The position numbers were made by a program, and so were the translations under genes. Positions 3,275 through 49,251 of a stretch of DNA of 64,000 nucleotides are shown here, in pieces. The notes under the pieces were generated by a model. That model was not told the origin of the DNA and made no database searches. It worked only from the letters and a program-made list of their open reading frames with translations. The stretch covers positions 27,897 through 91,896 of the forward strand of contig CAIJKW010000030.1 in assembly GCA_903821355.1 (NCBI GenBank). The letters run 5' to 3'. Origin of the DNA: an uncultured bacterium (GTDB taxonomy: Bacteria > Patescibacteriota > Minisyncoccia > Phycocordibacterales > CAIZLB01). Position 1 is the first letter of the stretch; the number at the start of each line of letters is the position of its first letter.

Positions 3275-3829
3275 ATGGCAAAATCTAAGAAAAATAATAT
3301 TGCATATATTGATGGTGCAAATTTGCATAAGGGAATCAAAACACTTCCTTGGGATTTTGATCATGCAAAATTTAGAGTATGGCTTTTGGAGAAATATAAT
3401 GTAGTTGAAGCTTATATATTTTTAGGATTGGTAAGCAGTGATAAAAATATGGAGTTATATTTAAGACTTGAGTCTCAGGGTTACATACTTATTTTTAAAG
3501 AGGTTGTTGTTAATTCAAACGGAAGGACAAAAGGAAATTGCGATGCTGATTTAATAGTTCTTTTGATGCAACATCTTTATGGGGGTTTATTTGACAAAGC
3601 TATTTTGATTTCTAGCGATGGAGATTATATACCTTTAATTAAATTATTAATTCATGAGAACAAGATTGAGGTTTTGGTATCTCCGTATAACAGAAGTCTT
3701 TGTTCTATTATATTAAGAAGATCCAATGTAAGAATTGTCTATATCGATGATCAGAAATATTTACTTAAAATTGAGAATAATAATTATCTTGAAAATAAAA
3801 AAGCCGCCGATGAAGACGGAACATCATAA
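3275..3829 (+). CDS. NYN-domain (LabA/YacP-like, PIN-related) protein
   Basis: Motifs IAYIDGANLH…GNCDADL…ISSDGDY match the NYN/LabA-like acidic signature. Confidence 0.6.
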   Translation: MAKSKKNNIAYIDGANLHKGIKTLPWDFDHAKFRVWLLEKYNVVEAYIFLGLVSSDKNMELYLRLESQGYILIFKEVVVNSNGRTKGNCDADLIVLLMQHLYGGLFDKAILISSDGDYIPLIKLLIHENKIEVLVSPYNRSLCSIILRRSNVRIVYIDDQKYLLKIENNNYLENKKAADEDGTS

Positions 3830-3970
3830 GTAGCTTTTTTCTATTTGCGCGCGATGTATATATAATAGGTGCGTGCTTTTAAAAAGTCAAGAAAATGAGC
3901 AGCTTTACACCTTAATTATTTCATGTCTAAACTGAATGGGGGTTAAGTGGAGATTGAAAAAGGTTGGAAA

Positions 3971-4630
3971 ATGAGATATAATACTCCCATGATTATTACG
4001 TATTTGGGCCGTGAGGCTGTTAAAATTCAGTATGGAGATTTGGTTATAGCTTTTAATCCGCCAGCAAAGACATCGTCATATAAGATGAATAGATTTGGAG
4101 CTGATATTGCGCTTGAAACATTACCACATGAGGATATGTGTGGAGGATCTGAGATGGTTTATGGGGACAAGAAACCCTTCGTCATTTCTGGCCCTGGAGA
4201 ATATGAGGTGAATAGTATTTTTATAAAAGGTCTAGCAGGAGAGTCCTCATATGATATTGACAAAGATGATCCAAAACTTATTAACACAATATATGCATTA
4301 ACAGTTGAAGGCATTAATATGTTGTATCTTGGTGCGCAAGACGGTCCACTTCCAAAAGACACTGCGGATGCAATTGATTCTGTTGATATTCTATTTTTGC
4401 CAATAGGCGGAAACGGTGTTTTGGATGCAAAAACAGCTTACAAGCTTGCTATGAATTTGGAACCTAAAATTATTATTCCAATTCATTTTGATGGCAAGAA
4501 GGATGAGGCATTAACCTCGTTCTTAAAAGAAGCTGGAGAGCATGGTGACGCTATAGATAAATTAACAATCAAGAAAAAAGATCTTGATGGTAAAAATGGT
4601 GATATAATAGTTTTGTTACCACAACAATAA
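3971..4630 (+). CDS. metal-dependent hydrolase, beta-lactamase fold (UPF0173-like)
   Basis: N-terminus MRYNTPMIITYLGREAVKIQYGDLVIAFNP and C-terminal IIIPIHFD resemble MBL-fold UPF0173 hydrolases. The ORF may alternatively start at 3947. Confidence 0.6.
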   Translation: MRYNTPMIITYLGREAVKIQYGDLVIAFNPPAKTSSYKMNRFGADIALETLPHEDMCGGSEMVYGDKKPFVISGPGEYEVNSIFIKGLAGESSYDIDKDDPKLINTIYALTVEGINMLYLGAQDGPLPKDTADAIDSVDILFLPIGGNGVLDAKTAYKLAMNLEPKIIIPIHFDGKKDEALTSFLKEAGEHGDAIDKLTIKKKDLDGKNGDIIVLLPQQ

Positions 4631-4697
4631 AAGATTTTTAAGCTTAGAAATCACGTTAAAATCATTAGATTTTGACGAAAAAATAAAAAATAAAAAT

Positions 4698-5273
4698 ATG
4701 TTATCAAAACATTTTGAAAAAATAAGGCAAAAATCAGAAAACTATAGAATGGTCTATGCCTTTACTGTGTCCCTTGTTTTTACTGGGATTATTTCAGGTT
4801 TATGGGTCTTTTCAATGTTTATCCCCAATTTCAATAGTGATTCTAATATCGCAAATAGTGCCAATGTCTCTGGCGCAGTTGATGGAAAGGGTGTTGGTGA
4901 GAGTCAAAATTATTTAAGCCCAACTGGCGTTGTGAAGCAGGAAGGTGGAAATATCGTAGATTCTTTTTGGAATGCTATCAAAGGAATAAAAAGCAATCCT
5001 TATATGGGTGGTCAGTTTGAAGTAAGGTCTGACGGCACATCTGGATCAGAGAATTCAAATAAATTATCTACAACAACTGCAAGCGGTATCACAGTAGAAG
5101 TTGGTAATTCAAATAGTGTTGATTCAAGTGTTGGCATTATTGTTCCAAGCGGATCTACCGGTGGTGGTTATGTTAATACTGTGAATTCAGGTGGGGCGAG
5201 CGCAGGTGGTGCGAGTGCGAGCGCAGTTGACGCTGGTAACGTAAATGACACTGACAGCGCTTCAGGAAATTAA
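4698..5273 (+). CDS. hypothetical membrane-anchored Gly/Ser-rich protein
   Basis: N-terminal TM (VYAFTVSLVFTGIISGLWVF) followed by a low-complexity G/S/N-rich region. Confidence 0.45.
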   Translation: MLSKHFEKIRQKSENYRMVYAFTVSLVFTGIISGLWVFSMFIPNFNSDSNIANSANVSGAVDGKGVGESQNYLSPTGVVKQEGGNIVDSFWNAIKGIKSNPYMGGQFEVRSDGTSGSENSNKLSTTTASGITVEVGNSNSVDSSVGIIVPSGSTGGGYVNTVNSGGASAGGASASAVDAGNVNDTDSASGN

Positions 5274-39384: not shown

Positions 39385-40617
39385 ATGATACAATCTAACC
39401 ATATGCAACCACAGTCACAATATTTCAATAACTCTATTTTCTGGATAGAAATAGAGAAAATCGTTCCAAACCCATATCAACCTCGTAGAGACTTTGACCC
39501 AGTTGCTCTAAAAGATTTGTCTGAATCAATTAGAATGTATGGCCTATTACAGCCAATCGTTGTTACTCGTAATGAAATAATTAAAGAGGATGGCGGGCTT
39601 GCAGTTCAATATGAGCTTATCTCAGGAGAGCGACGTCTTCGTGCATCAAAGCTCGCAGGCCTTACACAGCTTCCTGTAATTATTAGATCTGGCGATGATG
39701 ACAACAGGGTCAAGCTTGAACTGGCTATAATTGAGAACTTGCAAAGAGAGGACTTGAATGCGGTAGATAGGGCAAGAGCATTCCAACAGTTATCAGAAGA
39801 ATTTGGACTTAAGCATGTGCAAATTGCCATGAAGGTGGGGAAGAGTCGTGAATATGTTACAAACACAATTAGACTTTTGGCTTTACCTGAACACATGCTT
39901 CAAGCACTTTCAGAGAGAAAAATTAGCGAAGGGCATACTCGTCCACTTTTAATGTTGGCTGACAAACCTGAAGAGCAAGAGGTATTGTTTAAGGAGATTT
40001 TAATTAAAAAAATTACAGTTAGAGAGGCGGAGAGAATTGCAAGAAATGTTGCTGTTGATCGCGCAAGAAGAAAAGAAACATTGGAGAAAGATTCTGAGAT
40101 GACAGAAATTGAAGGAAAATTGAACGAAGCTCTTGGAACAAGAGTGATGATTGAAAGACGAGAGGTTGGTGGAAAGATTGTGATTGATTTCTTTAATAAC
40201 GAAGACTTGCATCACCTGCTTCAAATTTTGGAAGGACAAGAAAAAATGCAGGGATTTTCACAAAAGTTGAAGAGTGAATTGGCAAAAGCTGATAGCGATA
40301 AATTAACTTCAGTCTCCGAAGATTCTGCAAGCAAAAAGTGGACGGTTGAAAATTTGGTAAATGCTCCAAATTCTGAGTTTGTTCAAAATCAAAAAGCGCA
40401 AGAGGTGGAGGATGATCAAACCACACAGCTAGACCAGCTCGCTCGACCCACTCAAGCAAATTTAGATGAGCAAAACGAGAAAATGATTCAAGATCTAATT
40501 GAGAGCGATTCTGATGTTGGTTTAACTGAAAGTGGAGCACCCATCGATGATTCTAGTCCAGCGGACAGAAATGAAGACGATGAGGACTTGTATTCAATTA
40601 AGAATTTTTCACTTTAG
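39385..40617 (+). CDS. parB: ParB/Spo0J-family partition protein with long acidic C-terminal extension
   Basis: ParB box IEIEKIVPNPYQPRRDF…GLLQPIVV…GERRLRASKLAGL and HTH region. The true start may be an internal Met. Confidence 0.7.
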   Translation: MIQSNHMQPQSQYFNNSIFWIEIEKIVPNPYQPRRDFDPVALKDLSESIRMYGLLQPIVVTRNEIIKEDGGLAVQYELISGERRLRASKLAGLTQLPVIIRSGDDDNRVKLELAIIENLQREDLNAVDRARAFQQLSEEFGLKHVQIAMKVGKSREYVTNTIRLLALPEHMLQALSERKISEGHTRPLLMLADKPEEQEVLFKEILIKKITVREAERIARNVAVDRARRKETLEKDSEMTEIEGKLNEALGTRVMIERREVGGKIVIDFFNNEDLHHLLQILEGQEKMQGFSQKLKSELAKADSDKLTSVSEDSASKKWTVENLVNAPNSEFVQNQKAQEVEDDQTTQLDQLARPTQANLDEQNEKMIQDLIESDSDVGLTESGAPIDDSSPADRNEDDEDLYSIKNFSL

Positions 40618-40721
40618 TCTCATTTCCACCTTACACCTTTCTTTTCAACTTTAAGTAAAATTTGGGTTTTCTTTAGAATTTCTTTATATATTCTTAATGT
40701 CAATTTGCTAGGATTTTTCTC

Positions 40722-41348
40722 ATGAAAGAAAAAGAAACAAATGAAGTCTCATTAAGTATGGAGACTATAAGAGAAAATATTTATATTATAAGAGGACAGA
40801 AGGTAATGTTGGATAGGGATTTAGCCATGTTGTATGGTGTTACTACAAAAAGACTAAATGAAGCTGTAAAAAGAAATATCCGCAGATTTCCTGAGGATTT
40901 TATGTTCCAATTAACAAAGGAGGAGGTTGAAATATGTTCAAGGTCGCAATTTGCGAAATTGAATGATGAGGAAAACTATGAAAACTTGAAGTCGCAATTT
41001 GCGACTTCAAGTTTTAGCCCTACAAACAAAGATAACTTGAAGTCACAAATTGTGACTTCAAGTTGGGGAGGTAGTAGAAAGGGTTCTTTAGCTTTTACAG
41101 AACAAGGTATAGCCATGCTCTCAAGTGTTCTTAATAGCGACAGAGCAATACAAGTAAATATTCAAATCATAAGAGTTTTTACCAAACTTCGTGAAATGAT
41201 TGATGCTTATAAAGATTTAAGAGAGAAAATTGAAGAAATGGAGATAAATAATGAAGCAAACTTCACTGAAATATTCAGAATTATTAAGTTGTTAATCACT
41301 GAGAAAGAAAAACCAAAAGGCCAATTTGGCTTTATTGTTGATAAGTAA
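40722..41348 (+). CDS. ORF6N-domain (KilA-N-like, phage anti-repressor-type) DNA-binding protein
   Basis: IRGQKVMLDRDLAMLYGVTTKRLNEAVKRNIRRFPEDFMFQLTKEE… and SQIVTSSWGG…AFTEQGIAMLSSVLNSDRAIQVNIQIIRVF are hallmark ORF6N blocks. An internal triple repeat encodes LKSQ(F/I)(A/V)TSS. Confidence 0.65.
   Translation: MKEKETNEVSLSMETIRENIYIIRGQKVMLDRDLAMLYGVTTKRLNEAVKRNIRRFPEDFMFQLTKEEVEICSRSQFAKLNDEENYENLKSQFATSSFSPTNKDNLKSQIVTSSWGGSRKGSLAFTEQGIAMLSSVLNSDRAIQVNIQIIRVFTKLREMIDAYKDLREKIEEMEINNEANFTEIFRIIKLLITEKEKPKGQFGFIVDK
40985..41011. repeat. 27-bp perfect palindrome cttgaagtcgcaa-t-ttgcgacttcaag (inside ORF6N CDS)
   Basis: Exact reverse-complement symmetry. A partial copy lies at 40938-40960. 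Confidence 0.8.
41026..41052. repeat. 27-bp perfect palindrome cttgaagtcacaa-a-ttgtgacttcaag (inside ORF6N CDS)
   Basis: Exact symmetry. Encodes LKSQIVTSS. Confidence 0.8.
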
Positions 41349-41375
41349 AATTTTTTTAACGGCAAATAATAAAGC

Positions 41376-41410
41376 TCTCTCTAAGGTCACATATTGTGAC
41401 CTTAGAGAGA
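41376..41410. repeat. 35-bp palindrome tctctctaaggtcaca-tat-tgtgaccttagagaga (downstream of ORF6N)
   Basis: 16-bp arms with a 3-nt centre. Same core GTCACA/TGTGAC as the intragenic copies. Confidence 0.75.
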
Positions 41411-41431
41411 CGGCTAACAATAATGATCTGT

Positions 41432-41456
41432 TTGATATCACAAATTGTGATATCAA
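41432..41456. repeat. 25-bp perfect palindrome ttgatatcacaa-a-ttgtgatatcaa
   Basis: Exact symmetry; same family. Confidence 0.75.
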
Positions 41457-41483
41457 GTTTGAGGCTAAAAATATACCTAAATT

Positions 41484-41508
41484 TTGAGGTCGCAAATTGC
41501 GACCTCAA
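41484..41508. repeat. 25-bp perfect palindrome ttgaggtcgcaa-a-ttgcgacctcaa
   Basis: Exact symmetry; same family. It lies about 35 bp from the topA stop. Confidence 0.75.
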
Positions 41509-41541
41509 GATTTCGAATATGTATAAGGTAATGAGCAGGAT

Positions 41542-43749
41542 CTATTTCACCACCGGAGCTTCCTTCTTCTTAAATCCACCACGCCTTCCAACTACTTTTG
41601 GCAACGCAAGAATTTCAAGCGCACGTTCTAGTGTGATTGTATAAACATCGTCAGTTTTTAGTGATCTAAAATCAGCATCATGAACAATATAAGGACCAAA
41701 TCTTCCGATGCTTGCAGTTATATTTTTGCCGCTCTCTGGGTGCTTTCCTAAAACTCTAGGAAGTGAAAGATAAACTAGGGCCTGCTCAACAGAAACGTTG
41801 CTTGGATCAACCTCTTTAGGAATTGATGCCATTCTTGGTTTTTTGTTTTCTGGGGTTTTTTCACCAAGCTGAACATAAGGACCAAATCTTCCAATTTTTG
41901 TAAAAATAGAAAGGCCTGTTGCTGGGTCAATGCCAATCGGCTCATCGGTCTTAATCAAAACTCCTTCCATTGTTAGCGCCCCATCACATTCTGGATATTT
42001 TGAACAACTCAAAAACTTTCCAGTTCTTGCGAGTTTGATAATCATGCTTGCTCCACATTTTGGACATTTGAGCGATGGGTCAGCGTCGCCAAGATTTGTA
42101 ACTTTTTCAATATCAATTTTTTCTCCAATAATTTTTGTTAGAGGATCATAAAACTTTTTAATTGTAGGAATATATTTTGCGGTACCGGCTGCAATATCGT
42201 CCAATTCATTTTCCATTTCAGCTGTGAAATCGTAATCAACATATTTACCAAAATGCTCTTCCAAAAAAGAAATCACAACTTCTCCTGTGTCAGTTGGCTT
42301 AAGTGATTTATTTATTTTCTCAATATACTGTCTTGTCTCAAGTGTTTTTATAATACTTGCATAAGTTGAAGGACGGCCAATACCTTTTTTGTCCAACTCT
42401 TTAACAAGACCCGCTTCAGAATATCTACTTGGTGGTTCTGTGAACTTTTCAATCCAGACCATTTTTTCAAGTTTCAATTTTTCATCTTTTTCTGTTTTTG
42501 GCAAAATGACATCTTCTCCAACTGCATCAGGATCTGCCCTTAGCCATCCATCGAAAATTACACGTGATCCTGTGACAGCAAAATTTGGAAGCTTGTTGTT
42601 TGTATTTGTGTCGCCATCCGCGCATGCAATTATTTTTGTTCTAGCAATTCTTGCGTCCGCCATCTGAGACGCTAGGGTTCTTGCTCGAATAAGTGCATAT
42701 AATTTCTTTTCGTCCTCATTTACACCTGCTTTTGCAATACTTAGATGAGTTGGTCTAATGGCTTCATGGGCTTCTTGTGCATTTTTGCTTGTTGATTTGA
42801 AAGCTTTTTTCTCGGCGTATTTATCGCCAAATTCTTTTTTGATAACCTCCTCAGCTTCTTTAATTGCGAGTGAGCTTAGGTTTGTACTGTCTGTACGCAT
42901 ATAAGAAATATGTCCGCTTTCATATAGCTTTTGTGCAATACCCATTGTTCTTGAAGGAGTAAATCCAAGTCTTGACGATGCAGCTTGTTGCAAAGTTGAA
43001 GTCGTGAATGGTGGGCGAGAGGTCCTTTTCATTTCAGTTTCTTCTATATCTTTCACTTTCCAGTTAGTTTTTTCACCAAGTGCGGTAATTTCTTCCGCTC
43101 TAACTTTATCTTTTATTTCCTCCGTGCAGTTCATCTGCAACAGTGCGCCGTCTTTGTTTTTAAAATCAGCCGAGATTGGATAATAGGCCTCAGGAATAAA
43201 AGCTCTGATTTCTCTTTCGCGTTCAACAAGAATACGGAGGGCGGGGGACTGAACTCTACCAGCTGAAAGACCATATCTAACCTTTTTCCAAATGACGCCA
43301 GAAAGATCGTATCCAACAAGTCTATCAAGTACACGTCTAGCTTCCTGAGCTGTTCTCAAGTTATCATCAATTTCTCTTGGATGAGCGATAGCTTCTCTGA
43401 TAGCTTCTTTTGTAATTTCATAATAGACAACACGCTTTGGATTTTTAAGACCAAGCGCTTCTTTTAGGTGCCATGCAATGGCTTCACCTTCACGGTCGGG
43501 GTCAGTTGCTAGAAGTATTGCCGATGCTTTTTTTGCGCGAGCTCTTATATCGGCAATAACTTTTTCTTTTCCAGGAGAAACTTCATAGTGAGGGACGAAG
43601 CCTGCAGGTATATCAATTGCGATTCTGTTACTCTTTGGCAAGTCTCTAATATGGCCAACTGATGCGACAACATCAAATTCACCTTCCAAATATTTGGAAA
43701 TGATTTTTGCTTTTGAAGGAGACTCAACGATCAGAAGTGTTTTGGACAT
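41542..43749 (-). CDS. topA: DNA topoisomerase I
   Basis: TOPRIM N-terminus MSKTLLIVESPSKAKIISKYLEG…, C-terminal Zn-finger CPKCGASMIIK…CSKYPEC and tail repeats. The start is taken at the internal M; the track ORF extends to 43833. Confidence 0.9.
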   Translation of the reverse strand: MSKTLLIVESPSKAKIISKYLEGEFDVVASVGHIRDLPKSNRIAIDIPAGFVPHYEVSPGKEKVIADIRARAKKASAILLATDPDREGEAIAWHLKEALGLKNPKRVVYYEITKEAIREAIAHPREIDDNLRTAQEARRVLDRLVGYDLSGVIWKKVRYGLSAGRVQSPALRILVEREREIRAFIPEAYYPISADFKNKDGALLQMNCTEEIKDKVRAEEITALGEKTNWKVKDIEETEMKRTSRPPFTTSTLQQAASSRLGFTPSRTMGIAQKLYESGHISYMRTDSTNLSSLAIKEAEEVIKKEFGDKYAEKKAFKSTSKNAQEAHEAIRPTHLSIAKAGVNEDEKKLYALIRARTLASQMADARIARTKIIACADGDTNTNNKLPNFAVTGSRVIFDGWLRADPDAVGEDVILPKTEKDEKLKLEKMVWIEKFTEPPSRYSEAGLVKELDKKGIGRPSTYASIIKTLETRQYIEKINKSLKPTDTGEVVISFLEEHFGKYVDYDFTAEMENELDDIAAGTAKYIPTIKKFYDPLTKIIGEKIDIEKVTNLGDADPSLKCPKCGASMIIKLARTGKFLSCSKYPECDGALTMEGVLIKTDEPIGIDPATGLSIFTKIGRFGPYVQLGEKTPENKKPRMASIPKEVDPSNVSVEQALVYLSLPRVLGKHPESGKNITASIGRFGPYIVHDADFRSLKTDDVYTITLERALEILALPKVVGRRGGFKKKEAPVVK

Positions 43750-43793
43750 GTCTATAATTAATACTACATATATTGCGATTGTGCAAATTTTGA

Positions 43794-43834
43794 CAAAAAA
43801 AATGGTTGAGCGCAGCACCTTGCGCCCAACCATT
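43794..43834 (-). terminator. Strong rho-independent terminator on the minus strand, upstream of topA
   Basis: On the minus strand: GGUUGGGCGCAAGGUGCUGCGCUCAACC followed by UUUUUUUU. Confidence 0.7.
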
Positions 43835-47682: not shown

Positions 47683-49116
47683 ATGAACGATGAATTAGAC
47701 CAGCAAAATTCGCAAAAAAATATTTATCAAGGTAATTATGAAAATGATTACAAAGATAGTTTAAAAACCAGCACTGATTTTTCTGTTGGTAGTTTACCAA
47801 GCTCTGATCCTGTTGAGGCTCCAAATGAAGCTCCAAAATACATGAATCTCGGCGCGCCAAGAGAGAGAAACGAGGAAGATTTTGCTCATCATGAAAACAA
47901 CATGAGGTCTCTTTTTGGAGAAGATTTTAAAAAAGATTTTTCATCCCTGGGTTTTAGCTCAAAGAAAAAAATGGGCATTGTTGTGGCGCCAAGTGAGAAC
48001 GGCTCAATCTCAAGATTTTTTGCTAGATATTTTAACCTATATTTGCACGGCCCTCATTTCAAGTTAACAAAAACAAGTTCTTCAGCTACCCACACCATTT
48101 CATCAAAAATAAAATGGGGAGTTATAATGCTATTTTTGGCTGTGTCTGTCTCTTCGTTTACAATTCAATCCACTTTATTTTTGAAAGATTATTTTTTTGG
48201 TAATAAGAGTGTTGCGGTGGCTGATATAAATAATCCTCTGCAAGGTAAGGGTGCGATACAAACTGGCTCGATCAATGAATTCAAAGGATCTGACGATGGC
48301 ACAAATGCAAACGGTAGTTCTACAGGACAAAAAATTAATAGAGCTCCACAATATAGATTAAATGATATCTCACATTTTCCTACACTTTCGGCCAAATCTT
48401 TTTTGGTGGCAGATTTAAAGACTGGAGAAATTATCAAAGAAAGCCAGGATGTTGGCGTCTATCCTTTAGCCTCTGTTTCAAAATTGATGACAGGCGTGAT
48501 TGCGTACGAGCAAATGGATCCAAAACAAATGGCAACAGTATCAAGAAGTTCATATAATACATTTGGTACTGAAGGTGAACTTTTACTTGGAGAAACTATT
48601 AGAGTAAGTGATTTAATGTACCCACTACTTATGGAATCAAGCAATGATGGTGCAGAAGTTTTGGCTGATTCATATGGTCACGATAAGTTCATGTCGGAGA
48701 TGAACAAGAAGGCCCATGCGCTAGGGATGAATGACACTTACTACAATGATCCAAGCGGACTTGATCCAAAAAACGTTTCAAATGTTGAGGATCAATTTAA
48801 GCTAGCAAGATATATTTACGAAAAGGACCCCGTGATTTTTGATCTCACAAGAGTTAGACAATTTGAAATTCTAAACCACAGATGGTATAGCAAAAATGCC
48901 ATGCTCAATATAGATTCTTTTATAGGTGGAAAAAATGGTTTTATCGATGAATCAAAGCAAACCACAACTTGTTTGTTTGATATTCAGATGGCAAAAGGTG
49001 GTAAAAGAAAGATTGCAATCATGTTGCTTCGTACAAGTGACAGGGAGGGGGATGTGGTTAAGATACTCAATTTCTTAAAGAAGAACGGGTACTATGACGA
49101 GAGTTTGAATCAATAA
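47683..49116 (+). CDS. D-alanyl-D-alanine carboxypeptidase (peptidase S11, PBP5/6-like) with long N-terminal extension
   Basis: SxxK (ASVSKLMT) and SxN (SSNDG) motifs. A TM segment precedes the catalytic domain. Confidence 0.7.
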   Translation: MNDELDQQNSQKNIYQGNYENDYKDSLKTSTDFSVGSLPSSDPVEAPNEAPKYMNLGAPRERNEEDFAHHENNMRSLFGEDFKKDFSSLGFSSKKKMGIVVAPSENGSISRFFARYFNLYLHGPHFKLTKTSSSATHTISSKIKWGVIMLFLAVSVSSFTIQSTLFLKDYFFGNKSVAVADINNPLQGKGAIQTGSINEFKGSDDGTNANGSSTGQKINRAPQYRLNDISHFPTLSAKSFLVADLKTGEIIKESQDVGVYPLASVSKLMTGVIAYEQMDPKQMATVSRSSYNTFGTEGELLLGETIRVSDLMYPLLMESSNDGAEVLADSYGHDKFMSEMNKKAHALGMNDTYYNDPSGLDPKNVSNVEDQFKLARYIYEKDPVIFDLTRVRQFEILNHRWYSKNAMLNIDSFIGGKNGFIDESKQTTTCLFDIQMAKGGKRKIAIMLLRTSDREGDVVKILNFLKKNGYYDESLNQ

Positions 49117-49140: not shown

Positions 49141-49240
49141 CTATGTGGGTCAGATCATCTGGTTAACCTGTGCGGGCCAAATCAGCTAGCTAACCTATGC
49201 GGGTCAGATAACCATCGCTATCGTGCAATATATCACATGT
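49141..49240. repeat. Three degenerate ~30-bp direct repeats (acctatgcgggtcagat…)
   Basis: ctatgtgggtcagatcatc / cctgtgcgggccaaatcagc / cctatgcgggtcagataacc at ~30-bp spacing. Located directly upstream of a promoter. Confidence 0.5.
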
Positions 49241-49251
49241 GATATATTGTA

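Follow-up and report, generated by a model that had tools for sequence, protein, structure and literature searches.

The window, i.e., the whole stretch of 64 kb of DNA that was analyzed, contains a gene encoding an ORF6N-domain protein in the gene order miaA-parB-ORF6N-topA-dprA. This neighborhood of housekeeping genes is conserved and chromosomal in the clade. The original prediction had described five perfect palindromes and one partial copy inside and just downstream of the gene. The sequence as well as a repeat finder confirmed these numbers: five of the palindromes within 40938-41513 are perfect, and one copy is decayed (Table 1). Copies 1-3 are in frame with the ORF, and copies 4-6 are situated in the gap of 193 nt between the ORF6N stop (41348) and the convergent topA stop (41542). 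This lineage has 2.5 in-gene and 3 downstream copies, which are spaced by about 51 bp.

Table 1. The ORF6N gene, predicted elements of its protein, and the six palindrome copies (positions within the window)
Feature	Position	Strand	Description
ORF6N-domain gene	40722-41348	+	208 aa; predicted N-terminal winged-helix DNA-binding domain, repeat loop, C-terminal coiled coil
Predicted recognition helix	40845-40877	+	T42-N52 (TKRLNEAVKRN), including Arg51; AF2 helix 42-51
C-terminal long helix	41139-41306	+	residues 140-195, predicted coiled-coil oligomerization region; single helix in the AF2 model
Palindrome copy 1	40938-40962	+	in-gene, TCAAGGTCGCAATTTGCGAAATTGA, decayed (10/12 pairs); encodes (S)RSQFAKL
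Palindrome copy 2	40981-41015	+	in-gene, 35 nt, perfect, 17-nt arms, 1-nt center; encodes NLKSQFATSSF
Palindrome copy 3	41034-41064	+	in-gene, 31 nt, perfect; encodes NLKSQIVTSS
Palindrome copy 4	41376-41410	none	downstream, non-coding, 35 nt, 16-nt arms, 3-nt center
Palindrome copy 5	41432-41456	none	downstream, non-coding, 25 nt, perfect
Palindrome copy 6	41479-41513	none	downstream, non-coding, 35 nt, one mismatch (17-nt arms, 94%); perfect 25-nt core at 41484-41508

Perfect palindromes with arms of 11 nt or more occur five times between 40700 and 41550, where 500 dinucleotide shuffles gave 0.002 on average, and the whole window contains nine. A scan for the dyad had been proposed as a way to find additional targets. 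With at most two mismatches, GTCRCAANTTGYGAC was found six times in the window (0.68 expected from shuffles), and every match was at the ORF6N locus (40943-41503). Thus, no dyad sites that could form a regulon were found elsewhere in the window. The repeat units of 48-52 nt were not detected by Tandem Repeats Finder, because they are too diverged.

Copy 3, which adjoins WGG...AFTEQ, is the ancestral copy. Copy 2 belongs to an extra repeat unit of ~51 nt, and exactly this one unit is missing from the orthologue L122. The proposed expansion by slippage fits these changes of copy number by whole units, and unequal exchange would fit them as well. Copy 1 is perfect in the orthologous loci L122, L001, and L124, and the differences between copy 4 and its orthologues in L122 and L001 are compensatory double changes. 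The triplication of the peptide motif was also verified, the three in-gene copies encoding RSQFAKL, LKSQFATSS, and LKSQIVTSS, but the comparison of orthologues revealed that it is not unique. Homologues contain 0-5 copies of the motif (regex count), and on the DNA level there are 0-5 in-gene palindromes per locus.

The assignment of the gene to the ORF6N family holds, with a PF10543 score of 115.5 bits (gathering threshold 27.8; E 1.4e-33). Residues 19-136 are aligned to profile positions 2-86 of 86, and thus the protein has an insertion of ~33 aa. The PHROG match is annotated as anti-repressor, and three PADLOC models of PDC-S05 were matched (PDLC04856, E 5.1e-56; PDLC04869, E 3.2e-54; PDLC04849, E 5.3e-38). 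A PDB sequence search and NCBIfam yielded no matches. ORF6N is a very large family, with 31,242 cluster representatives (50% identity) at E<=1e-3 and 16,477 at E<=1e-10. The family bears the annotation anti-repressor and is on record as the defense candidate PDC-S05. In the AF2 model, in which the protein has a DNA-binding fold, the N-terminal head appears to be a winged helix of the MerR/Par/RacA-like type, albeit with a modest fold match. The single-copy homologue P0095 has an equivalent long helix at residues 105-164, and in both models the confidence is low for the loop that is encoded by the repeats.

The palindrome turned out not to be restricted to this locus but to be a near-universal feature of the ORF6N family. 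It is present at the same position within the gene in 79 of 81 loci; these homologues cover more than 10 phyla and GC contents from 29 to 65%. Further copies are found at most 150 nt upstream in 17 of the 81 loci and at most 350 nt downstream in six, while only three sites in ~385 kb are more than 400 nt away from the gene. In Segatella, two complete plasmids of 2.9 and 4.1 kb carry rep and ORF6N, and their sole perfect palindrome with 10-bp arms is the one inside ORF6N. Copies within the coding sequence of other genes are rare exceptions, as in a helicase-like ORF in the viral contigs L099, L102, and L104. In hosts with 56-65% GC the GC3 of the gene is 0.57-0.74, and the palindrome still has a GC content of 28-48%. 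Relatives of the parB-topA locus without ORF6N are also devoid of palindromes. The sites belong to the gene and not to the host. A parS site for ParB was rejected, as the palindromes bear no relation to parS and are associated with ORF6N rather than with parB or topA. A search of the literature on ORF6N, PDC-S05, RhuM, KilA-N inverted repeats, and coding palindromes retrieved no description of the element.

The codon usage indicates that selection acts on the DNA. At 86 motif sites 10.8 of 12 positions are paired, compared to 5.0 expected for the same peptides with local codon usage, and 148 of 168 codon pairs are fully paired, compared to 45 expected. The amino acids covary according to the Watson-Crick rules: Ser TCA is accompanied by Val GTG in 59 cases and Ser TCG by Ala GCG in 53 cases, followed by TTC-GGA (10) and TGC-GGC (8), and only two pairs are mixed. 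An unbiased anchor test resulted in 29 AT, 29 GC, and one GT. Furthermore, the core GTCGCAAATTGCGAC is read in two different frames: the main family has SQIAT, and L154 and L157 have VANCD. Other subfamilies have the peptides VVENFDH and EVIKKFDNL, and yet a perfect palindrome in the same loop. These sequence comparisons show a conservation on the DNA level that is independent of the reading frame. As had been asked for LKSQIVTSS, the codons at this position are indeed palindromic also in the homologues (79 of 81 loci), but the view that the peptide comes first has to be reversed. Synonymous codon choice, Watson-Crick covariation, and the second reading frame together show that LKSQIVTSS is largely an imprint of the DNA element and conserved largely because of it. 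Conservation in the ORF6N family has to be re-read, as its hallmark peptide is for the most part a translated palindrome. The gene clearly exemplifies how a cis element and a protein code can be superimposed and co-evolve.

The extragenic copies retain the specific half-site TTGA(G/a/t)(G/a)TC(A/G)CAA, and the innermost AA/TT is conserved and symmetric in the non-coding copies. The very center often switches between A and T. In all 103 unique genes with a recognition helix that ends with RN, a C is present at +-3 of the palindrome center. In contrast, the C:G at +-3 is lost in the seven genes from three clades in which the helix ends with KNN or KHN. Recognition helix and site center thus change together, and Arg51 is predicted as a candidate contact for the C:G at +-3. 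The predicted binding site of the ORF6N protein is TTGARGTCRCAA-W-TTGYGACYTCAA.

Based on these results, we think with a probability of about one half that the palindromes are cis-acting DNA sites of the ORF6N gene that are read by its own product. The product would be a winged-helix protein that has a coiled coil and forms dimers or higher-order assemblies. Since nearly all members carry one copy at a constant position in their coding sequence, the binding site would travel with the gene to any site of insertion, and a mobile gene may thus carry its own regulation. The bound protein could act as a roadblock or as an auxiliary operator, and extra copies within, upstream, and downstream of the gene could be cooperative or looping sites. 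We infer that the protein physically binds these sites and represses, and that it does so as a roadblock or by looping. Selection on the DNA would set the codon choice and let the loop peptide LKSQ[IF][AV]TSS follow the palindrome, while the copy number would shift via slippage or unequal exchange between copies. The original prediction of an autoregulatory operator for a dimeric protein is therefore the best-supported reading with respect to the modeled winged helix and coiled coil and the co-change of helix and site center. A plain operator, however, leaves the strict covariation from arm to arm unexplained.

This covariation would be accounted for if the palindromes were extruded as DNA hairpins or cruciforms that are recognized by their structure, either by ORF6N or by host enzymes of replication, recombination, or topology. 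They could then be a cis element for the movement or copying of a cassette of ~0.7-1 kb, or a switch that is sensitive to supercoiling. The arms covary strictly and have differing sequences within one locus, only Watson-Crick pairs are used, as expected if both strands were to fold, and the RCSFST clade keeps perfect 10-bp stems despite a changed center. Extrusion would be favored by the AT-rich center (AAWTT) between GC-richer arms, and energies of -8.5 to -17 kcal/mol are predicted for the DNA hairpins (copy 2: -17 kcal/mol, z -7.5). In addition, several copies adjoin integrases, and the cassettes have no fixed ends, which leaves the in-gene palindrome as their sole conserved cis feature. 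Nevertheless, we regard recognition by structure as unlikely. The non-coding copies hold a specific half-site of 12 nt, which goes beyond mere pairing, and the site center tracks a residue of the recognition helix. Another argument against cruciforms is that arms of 12-17 bp are barely long enough to be extruded in a stable form. Lastly, the cassette junctions are without palindromes, and neither a recombinase nor an HUH enzyme shows a consistent linkage.

The ORF6N genes do look like inserted cassettes. Stretches of host DNA of 16-267 nt are directly duplicated on both sides of them, their ends are not fixed, and neither palindromes nor common termini were found at the junctions of these duplicated-target insertions. 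For the gene in the window, a direct repeat of 12 nt on its two sides, TAAGTAAAATTT, was rejected as target duplication, since it is within chance expectation and missing from L001. A rather doubtful proposal is that the gene is a complete one-gene module, i.e., a DNA-binding protein with its site encoded in its own ORF. As a cassette of ~0.7-1 kb it would enter operons, plasmids, and mobile elements of diverse bacteria and duplicate long target stretches upon insertion. The site would then be a cruciform-capable anchor, centromere-like as for pSK1 Par and RacA, or a sensor, more than the operator of a repressor. If true, this would account for the symmetry of the arms and the ~51-bp arrays beside parB in this clade, for ORF6N as the only non-rep gene on plasmids of 3-4 kb, and for the status as defense candidate.

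RNA hairpins in the ORF6N transcript, which could serve as 5' or 3' stabilizer, RNase III site, attenuator or terminator, or as a pause site for ribosomes, would fit that the copies are mostly within the likely transcript, i.e., shortly before the start, in the gene, and shortly after the stop. In the window, the downstream copies are situated between convergent genes, a place at which one would expect terminators, and a consensus scan flagged copies 2, 3, and 4 as terminator-like, though on the minus strand. We consider RNA hairpins very unlikely, because no tolerance of G·U pairs is seen: on the sense strand, A·C mismatches outnumber G·T mismatches in coding copies (61 versus 28), and the numbers are nearly equal in extragenic copies (21 versus 20). 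This lack of a G·U bias among the mismatch types argues against RNA hairpins, and so does the conservation and symmetry of the innermost AA/TT in non-coding copies, which would form the loop in RNA. The earlier suggestion of termination sites was also not borne out. No family palindrome was flagged on the plus strand, and on the strand of ORF6N the hairpins are not followed by a T-run, so they do not resemble canonical intrinsic terminators for this transcript. Copies 1-3 are inside the ORF, and a terminator within the ORF of nearly all members would be self-defeating. The sole terminator-like match on the plus strand was an unrelated quasi-palindrome at the 3' end of the gene (41317-41333). 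In the consensus scan promoters were found no more often than by chance, and an Rfam scan of 40400-41700 yielded only sub-threshold look-alikes of miRNA precursors.

Intrastrand template switching converts quasi-palindromes to perfect palindromes. The palindromes could therefore be a by-product of such correction together with replication slippage, with selection acting only on the peptide or a short core and the long palindrome itself being without function. This is in accordance with the whole-unit indels between orthologues, the frequent A/T flips of the center, and the low confidence with which the repeat-encoded loop is modeled. A mere mutational origin is nonetheless highly doubtful, as it leaves unexplained why the palindrome occurs at this position in nearly all loci across phyla and against the GC pressure, why it is conserved in two reading frames with unrelated peptides, and why non-coding copies beside the gene have the same consensus. 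That the intragenic repeats are an artefact of collapsed or expanded repeats in the assembly, for which the metagenome-type source and the presence of the identical protein on one contig only might speak, is practically excluded, because the copies differ from each other and would not collapse or expand, the reading frame is open, and independent assemblies of orthologues (L122 and L130; L001; L115-L120; L124) have the same design with 1-3 in-gene and 1-6 downstream copies.

Several known systems resemble the ORF6N locus in part. In lambda O, the iterons of ori-lambda form an array of dyad-symmetric sites within its own coding sequence, which is translated into a repeated linker peptide, and the copy number varies among relatives. 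The likeness would be a DNA-binding protein with putative binding sites, the dyads, inside its own ORF. In contrast to lambda O, ORF6N has no replication-initiator C-terminal or helicase-loader domain, the small Segatella plasmids bear a separate rep gene beside ORF6N, and its site, with long perfect arms, is maintained throughout the family, in different phyla and in two frames. At the ORF6N locus there was neither an adjacent AT-rich unwinding region or origin signal nor a switch of the GC skew. Intragenic operators that act by looping or by blocking elongation are lac O2 in lacZ, gal OI in galE, and the PurR operator in purB. They show that a repressor site in a coding region is compatible with the peptide, but they are lineage-specific, lie in target genes, define no family motif, and lack covariation of the arms.

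A head and coiled-coil architecture together with site arrays near the gene is typical for pSK1 Par (PDB 8csh), B. subtilis RacA with its ram sites (5i41), KfrA (PMC7783346, PMC7821693), and F sopB-sopC. These proteins have no sequence homology to ORF6N, the fold match is modest, and their sites are outside of the coding sequence. The long C-terminal coiled coil is predicted also for ORF6N, and dyad sites near the gene that covary with the helix are present as candidate binding sites; a role of ORF6N in partition is only putative.

Inverted repeats are also tolerated in other ORFs, where the DNA shapes the peptide. The in-frame Rickettsia palindromic elements are perfect inverted repeats within coding sequence, and mitochondrial genes of Nematomorpha contain coding palindromes (PMC6649704). 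Those elements are found in many unrelated genes per genome and look selfish or structural, whereas the ORF6N element is tied to one family across phyla. An element of the Rickettsia type was rejected, as the copies are confined to ORF6N genes and their flanks. REP/RAYT, IS200/IS605, and integron attC sites share short hairpin palindromes with covarying arms that are tied to a particular gene. However, the ORF6N palindromes are perfect instead of imperfect or strand-specific, they are not dispersed, and no integron integrase is linked. REP/RAYT or IS200/IS605 elements were also rejected, since all copies in the 64 kb are at one locus and a Y1 transposase is near only one relative (L013). Two more candidates did not apply. 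A CRISPR array disagrees with the differences among the copies, with a motif that is shared by the spacers, and with the coding nature of half of the array; for a shufflon, inversion of the segment between copies 2 and 3 would create a stop codon (manual reading). The spacings between copies have peaks at 42, 48-51, and 63 nt in a broad distribution that is confounded by relatedness, and they point only weakly to a helical phasing.

The label phage anti-repressor turned out to be an annotation label only. The immediate neighbors and the conserved chromosomal synteny are not those of a phage or prophage, and relatives are rare among deposited phage genomes, with only five records. With respect to defense, a representative of PDC-S05 reduced the plating of T7 and T5 about 1000-fold in E. 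coli (10.1101/2024.09.26.614923). The likeness to PDC-S05 and RhuM/DinD-like proteins consists of the three model matches and of relatives near R-M genes, Abi genes, and integrases. In contrast to the ORF6N architecture in the window, the representative tested with phages had a RhuM domain. The palindrome is not mentioned in the PDC-S05 papers that were found. For PDC-S05 a setting among defense genes or on mobile elements would be expected, whereas the gene in the window has the housekeeping neighbors miaA, parB, topA, and dprA. Some relatives adjoin integrases, and a defense setting was seen for a relative in a type I R-M operon of Treponema and for another one with an Abi neighbor in Alistipes.

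The original prediction of a palindrome family at the ORF6N gene (40722-41348) was borne out: a reading of positions 40500-41800 together with a repeat finder revealed six related copies, which are listed in the table. Copies 1, 2 and 3 lie in frame within the ORF and encode the peptides RSQFAKL, LKSQFATSS and LKSQIVTSS, and copies 4-6 lie between the end of the ORF and the stop of the convergent topA gene (41542-43833). When up to two mismatches were allowed, the dyad GTCRCAANTTGYGAC had six matches in the 64 kb window, all at the ORF6N locus, with 0.68 expected. Within 850 bp there were five perfect palindromes whose arms measured 11 nt or more, compared with 0.002 in dinucleotide shuffles, and the entire window contains just nine. 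A perfect 24-nt palindrome, CAATATATCACATGTGATATATTG, was seen at 49226-49249 in non-coding DNA past a 477-aa ORF (47683-49116); its core (TCACATGTGA) differs, and it is probably an unrelated operator. The quasi-palindrome AAGGCCAATTTGGCTTT (41317-41333) at the 3' end of the ORF6N gene encodes KGQFGF and was flagged as terminator-like; it is probably due to chance, because it is not kept in the related Patescibacteria-type assembly L001. The exact 12-nt direct repeat TAAGTAAAATTT on either side of the gene (40652-40663 and 41342-41353) is at chance level for AT-rich DNA and was not seen in L001.

Palindromes and flanking duplications at the ORF6N loci (L numbers denote fetched loci encoding homologues or related contigs)
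Locus	Feature	Position	Detail
Window	Copy 1	40938-40962	10/12 pairs; sequence reading and repeat finder
Window	Copy 2	40981-41015	35 nt, perfect
Window	Copy 3	41034-41064	31 nt, perfect
Window	Copy 4	41376-41410	35 nt, 3-nt centre
Window	Copy 5	41432-41456	25 nt, perfect
Window	Copy 6	41479-41513	25-nt core at 41484-41508 perfect
Window	Palindrome number		in gene 2.5; downstream 3; upstream 0
L122	Palindrome number		in gene 2; downstream 3 (one decayed)
L001	Palindrome number		in gene 3; downstream 6; upstream 1 (imperfect)
L115/L124	Palindrome number		in gene 1; downstream 1; upstream 0 detected
L024	Flanking duplication	2665-2792 / 3524-3651	5' end of ComF-like gene
L071	Flanking duplication	2688-2853 / 3569-3734	3' end of convergent HAD-like gene
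L049	Flanking duplication	190-446 / 1142-1402	
L025	Flanking duplication	2891-2906 / 3635-3650	kinase-stop/regulator-start junction
L036, L013, L014, L050, L062	Flanking duplication		

The LKSQIVTSS codons proved to be palindromic in ORF6N homologues elsewhere as well. For this comparison 80 loci (81 including the window, 29-65% GC) were taken from one-genome-per-species contigs of Patescibacteria, Omnitrophota, Bacteroidota, Planctomycetota, Acidobacteriota, Chloroflexota, Verrucomicrobiota, Nitrospirota, Desulfobacterota, Margulisbacteria and other phyla. In 79 of the 81 loci the gene contained at least one family palindrome, some 170-250 nt after its start. Nearly all of about 110 unique genes had at least 10 of 12 pairs at this loop, while the mode of the best of the region was 8 in shuffles. 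At 86 motif sites 10.8 of 12 positions were complementary, versus 5.0 expected from back-translation of the same peptides by local codon usage. The gene is host-like in GC-rich hosts, with a GC3 of 0.57-0.74, but the palindrome still has 28-48% GC. The palindrome is a property of the ORF6N gene family, which has over 30,000 cluster representatives. In some loci two to four ORF6N genes stand in tandem (L017 2953-5313, L029 3001-4698, L020, L076), with an in-gene palindrome in each gene. A second architecture (L131, L133, L141, L151) joins ORF6N to a C-terminal domain of about 170 aa with the motif HDRFLI.D...YHIGAS.KD.GKK and without a Pfam match; its upstream, in-gene and downstream palindromes are arranged as in the main family.

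The residue three positions after the Ser of the motif is predicted by the third base of the Ser codon. TCA-GTG (Val) occurred 59 times and TCG-GCG (Ala) 53 times, the mixed pair TCG-GTG twice and TCA-GCG never; further pairs were TTC-GGA (10), TGC-GGC (8) and TAC-GGT (2). In total, 148 of 168 codon pairs were fully paired, versus 45 expected, and AGG (Arg) with ACC, AAG (Lys) with ACT, and ATA (Ile) with ATA were likewise paired. When CAA-N-TTG and the flanking TC/GA served as the only anchor, the counts were AT 29, GC 29 and GT 1 within genes, and AT 15, GC 13 and others 4 outside genes. The sequence GTCGCAAATTGCGAC is read in two frames, as SQIAT in the main family and as VANCD in Legionella fallonii (L154) and Segatella hominis (L157), and further subfamilies encode the unrelated peptides VVENFDH and EVIKKFDNL, yet have a perfect palindrome in the same loop. 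These second-frame and unrelated-peptide subfamilies were found on plasmids, and they are the strongest evidence that base pairing governs the peptide. A Treponema member located in a type I R-M operon contains CTTGAGGTCGAAAATTTCGACCTCAAG, which encodes LRSKISTS. Codon-pair covariation, the second reading frame and the unrelated-peptide subfamilies argue that the conserved motif LKSQIVTSS is largely an imprint of the DNA element.

The window ORF encodes an ORF6N-domain protein (PF10543, E 1.4e-33), the domain of which is about 33 residues longer than the profile, corresponding to two extra repeat units. It matches PHROG anti-repressor families and three models of the PADLOC single-gene phage-defence candidate PDC-S05 (E down to 5e-56); searches of NCBIfam and, by sequence, of the PDB gave no match. 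AlphaFold2 models of this protein and of a single-copy homologue (P0095) both have a helix-turn-helix with beta strands at the N-terminus and one long helix of coiled-coil type in the C-terminal part. The motif-bearing loop is ill-defined, with a pLDDT below 50 for window residues 76-119 and around 60 for P0095. The site sequence tracks the protein subfamily, not the host phylum, and ORF6N itself is the only gene that always accompanies the site. In 103 unique genes the predicted recognition helix (T42-N52, TKRLNEAVKRN) ends with RN, and all 103 have a C at positions ±3 from the palindrome centre (CAA-W-TTG or CA-NNN-TG). In seven genes from three separate clades the Arg is replaced by Asn or His, and in these the C:G pair is gone (centres GAAA-A-TTTC, CAAA-AAA-TTTG and GCAG-TTT-TAGC). 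This pattern would be expected if Arg51 contacts the guanine at ±3, and, together with the dimer-type architecture, it supports the view that the protein binds its own palindromes.

If an mRNA hairpin were selected, G·U would be expected as the tolerated mismatch. On the sense strand of the coding copies A·C mismatches numbered 61 versus 28 for G·T, and the numbers were 21 versus 20 in extragenic copies oriented with the gene. On the ORF6N strand the hairpins were not followed by a T-run, and no Rfam family was matched. The lack of a G·U preference, of a T-run and of an Rfam match argues that the element acts, or is maintained, as DNA. A homodimer bound to a duplex needs neither covariation of the arms at degenerate positions nor symmetry that is perfect over 31-35 bp. 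One possibility is that the sites must additionally form hairpins or cruciforms, as favored by their AT-rich centre, by the predicted DNA hairpins (-8.5 to -17 kcal/mol) and by the perfect 10-bp stems that the 'RCSFST' clade retains despite its changed centre; the other is homogenisation of the arms by intrastrand template switching.

Among known systems, lambda O, with dyad iterons within its own gene that encode a linker, is the closest analogue in logic, the intragenic roadblock or looping operators purB, lacO2 and galOI are closest in mechanism, and pSK1 Par, RacA and KfrA in architecture. Further related cases are the palindromes in mitochondrial coding sequences of Nematomorpha (PMC6649704) and the in-frame Rickettsia elements. 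None of the systems compared brings together a site in the ORF of its own presumed binder, conservation across a family with over 30,000 cluster representatives, conservation in two reading frames and strict covariation of the arms, and full-text literature searches retrieved no description of the ORF6N in-gene palindrome.

Outside the gene, a family palindrome was present within 150 nt upstream of the start in 17 of the 81 loci and within 350 nt downstream of the stop in six; only three sites in about 385 kb were more than 400 nt away from the gene. The non-coding copies have retained a specific half-site, TTGA(G/a/t)(G/a)TC(A/G)CAA, and their centre is W. When 2.9 million viral contigs were scanned for the pattern, the exact 25-mer was detected in 31, 18 of which have an ORF6N gene in the stored flank; in the remainder the sites are non-coding or, in three contigs, within a helicase-like ORF. 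In the latter (L099, L102, L104; e.g., L099 centre 6511) the palindrome is in frame (FLKSQFATSK) in an ORF of 412 aa. The viral contig L097 has three adjacent palindromes (4401-4513) directly downstream of a Gp49/HTH_3 toxin-antitoxin-like pair, with a TnpB gene nearby; the stored flanks of these four contigs contain no ORF6N gene. Two complete Segatella copri plasmids, L145 (NZ_CP152354.1, 2,955 bp) and L146 (NZ_CP152486.1, 4,140 bp), carry just rep and ORF6N, which hints at a role in stability or partition. The sole perfect palindrome with 10-bp arms on each replicon is the one within ORF6N, and these plasmids are convenient experimental systems.

ORF6N genes are found as solitary, co-oriented insertions at very different places, e.g., between split metH parts, histidine kinase and response regulator, or glutaredoxin and tgt; others follow integrases, adjoin an Abi gene or lie within a type I R-M operon. 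Direct duplications of host DNA (16-267 nt, 76-100% identical) flank about 10 of 99 gene blocks; the inserts of 695-987 nt have no common ends and no palindromes at the junctions. The gene thus flanked appears to behave as a small mobile cassette, and a site in the coding sequence would enable it to carry its own control wherever it is inserted. In two unrelated genomes the ORF6N stop overlaps the start of the downstream host gene as ATGA (L021 3516-3519, metH part; L024 3531-3534, ComF-like), which suggests translational coupling with host operons. Treponema saccharophilum pTS1 (L151) has the order hsdM-wHTH-ORF6N-hsdS in a type I R-M operon, a relative in Alistipes indistinctus (L156) lies beside a KilA-N gene and an abortive-infection gene, and relatives in Legionella and Bacteroides (L147-L149, L154, L155) adjoin tyrosine integrases. 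These settings fit a defence-island or mobile-element status of the family.

The order miaA-parB-ORF6N-topA-dprA is kept in related Patescibacteria-type assemblies (L001, L115-L120, L122, L124, L130); more distant relatives of the locus (ParB 65%) have neither ORF6N nor palindromes. Orthologous non-coding copies differ by compensatory double changes, i.e., TCTCTC...GAGAGA versus TCTGTC...GACAGA and AAGGTC...GACCTT versus AAGATC...GATCTT. The downstream spacers and the in-gene spacer share a GGCTAAYAATAA-like motif, which argues for homology of the downstream array with the repeat unit in the gene. The triplication is not unique to the window gene, since a regex count gave 0-5 motif copies among 120 close homologues and L001 also has three in-gene copies; in a loop alignment all 70 homologues retained at least one motif. 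The proposed expansion by slippage agrees with the absence of one unit of about 51 nt from L122, and the triplication looks like a product of slippage or of unequal exchange between copies. In the close relative L121 (ParB 86%) an extra ORF of 472 aa without a Pfam match (3831-5249) lies between parB and ORF6N, which suggests that the gap between parB and topA is a site of variation within the clade.
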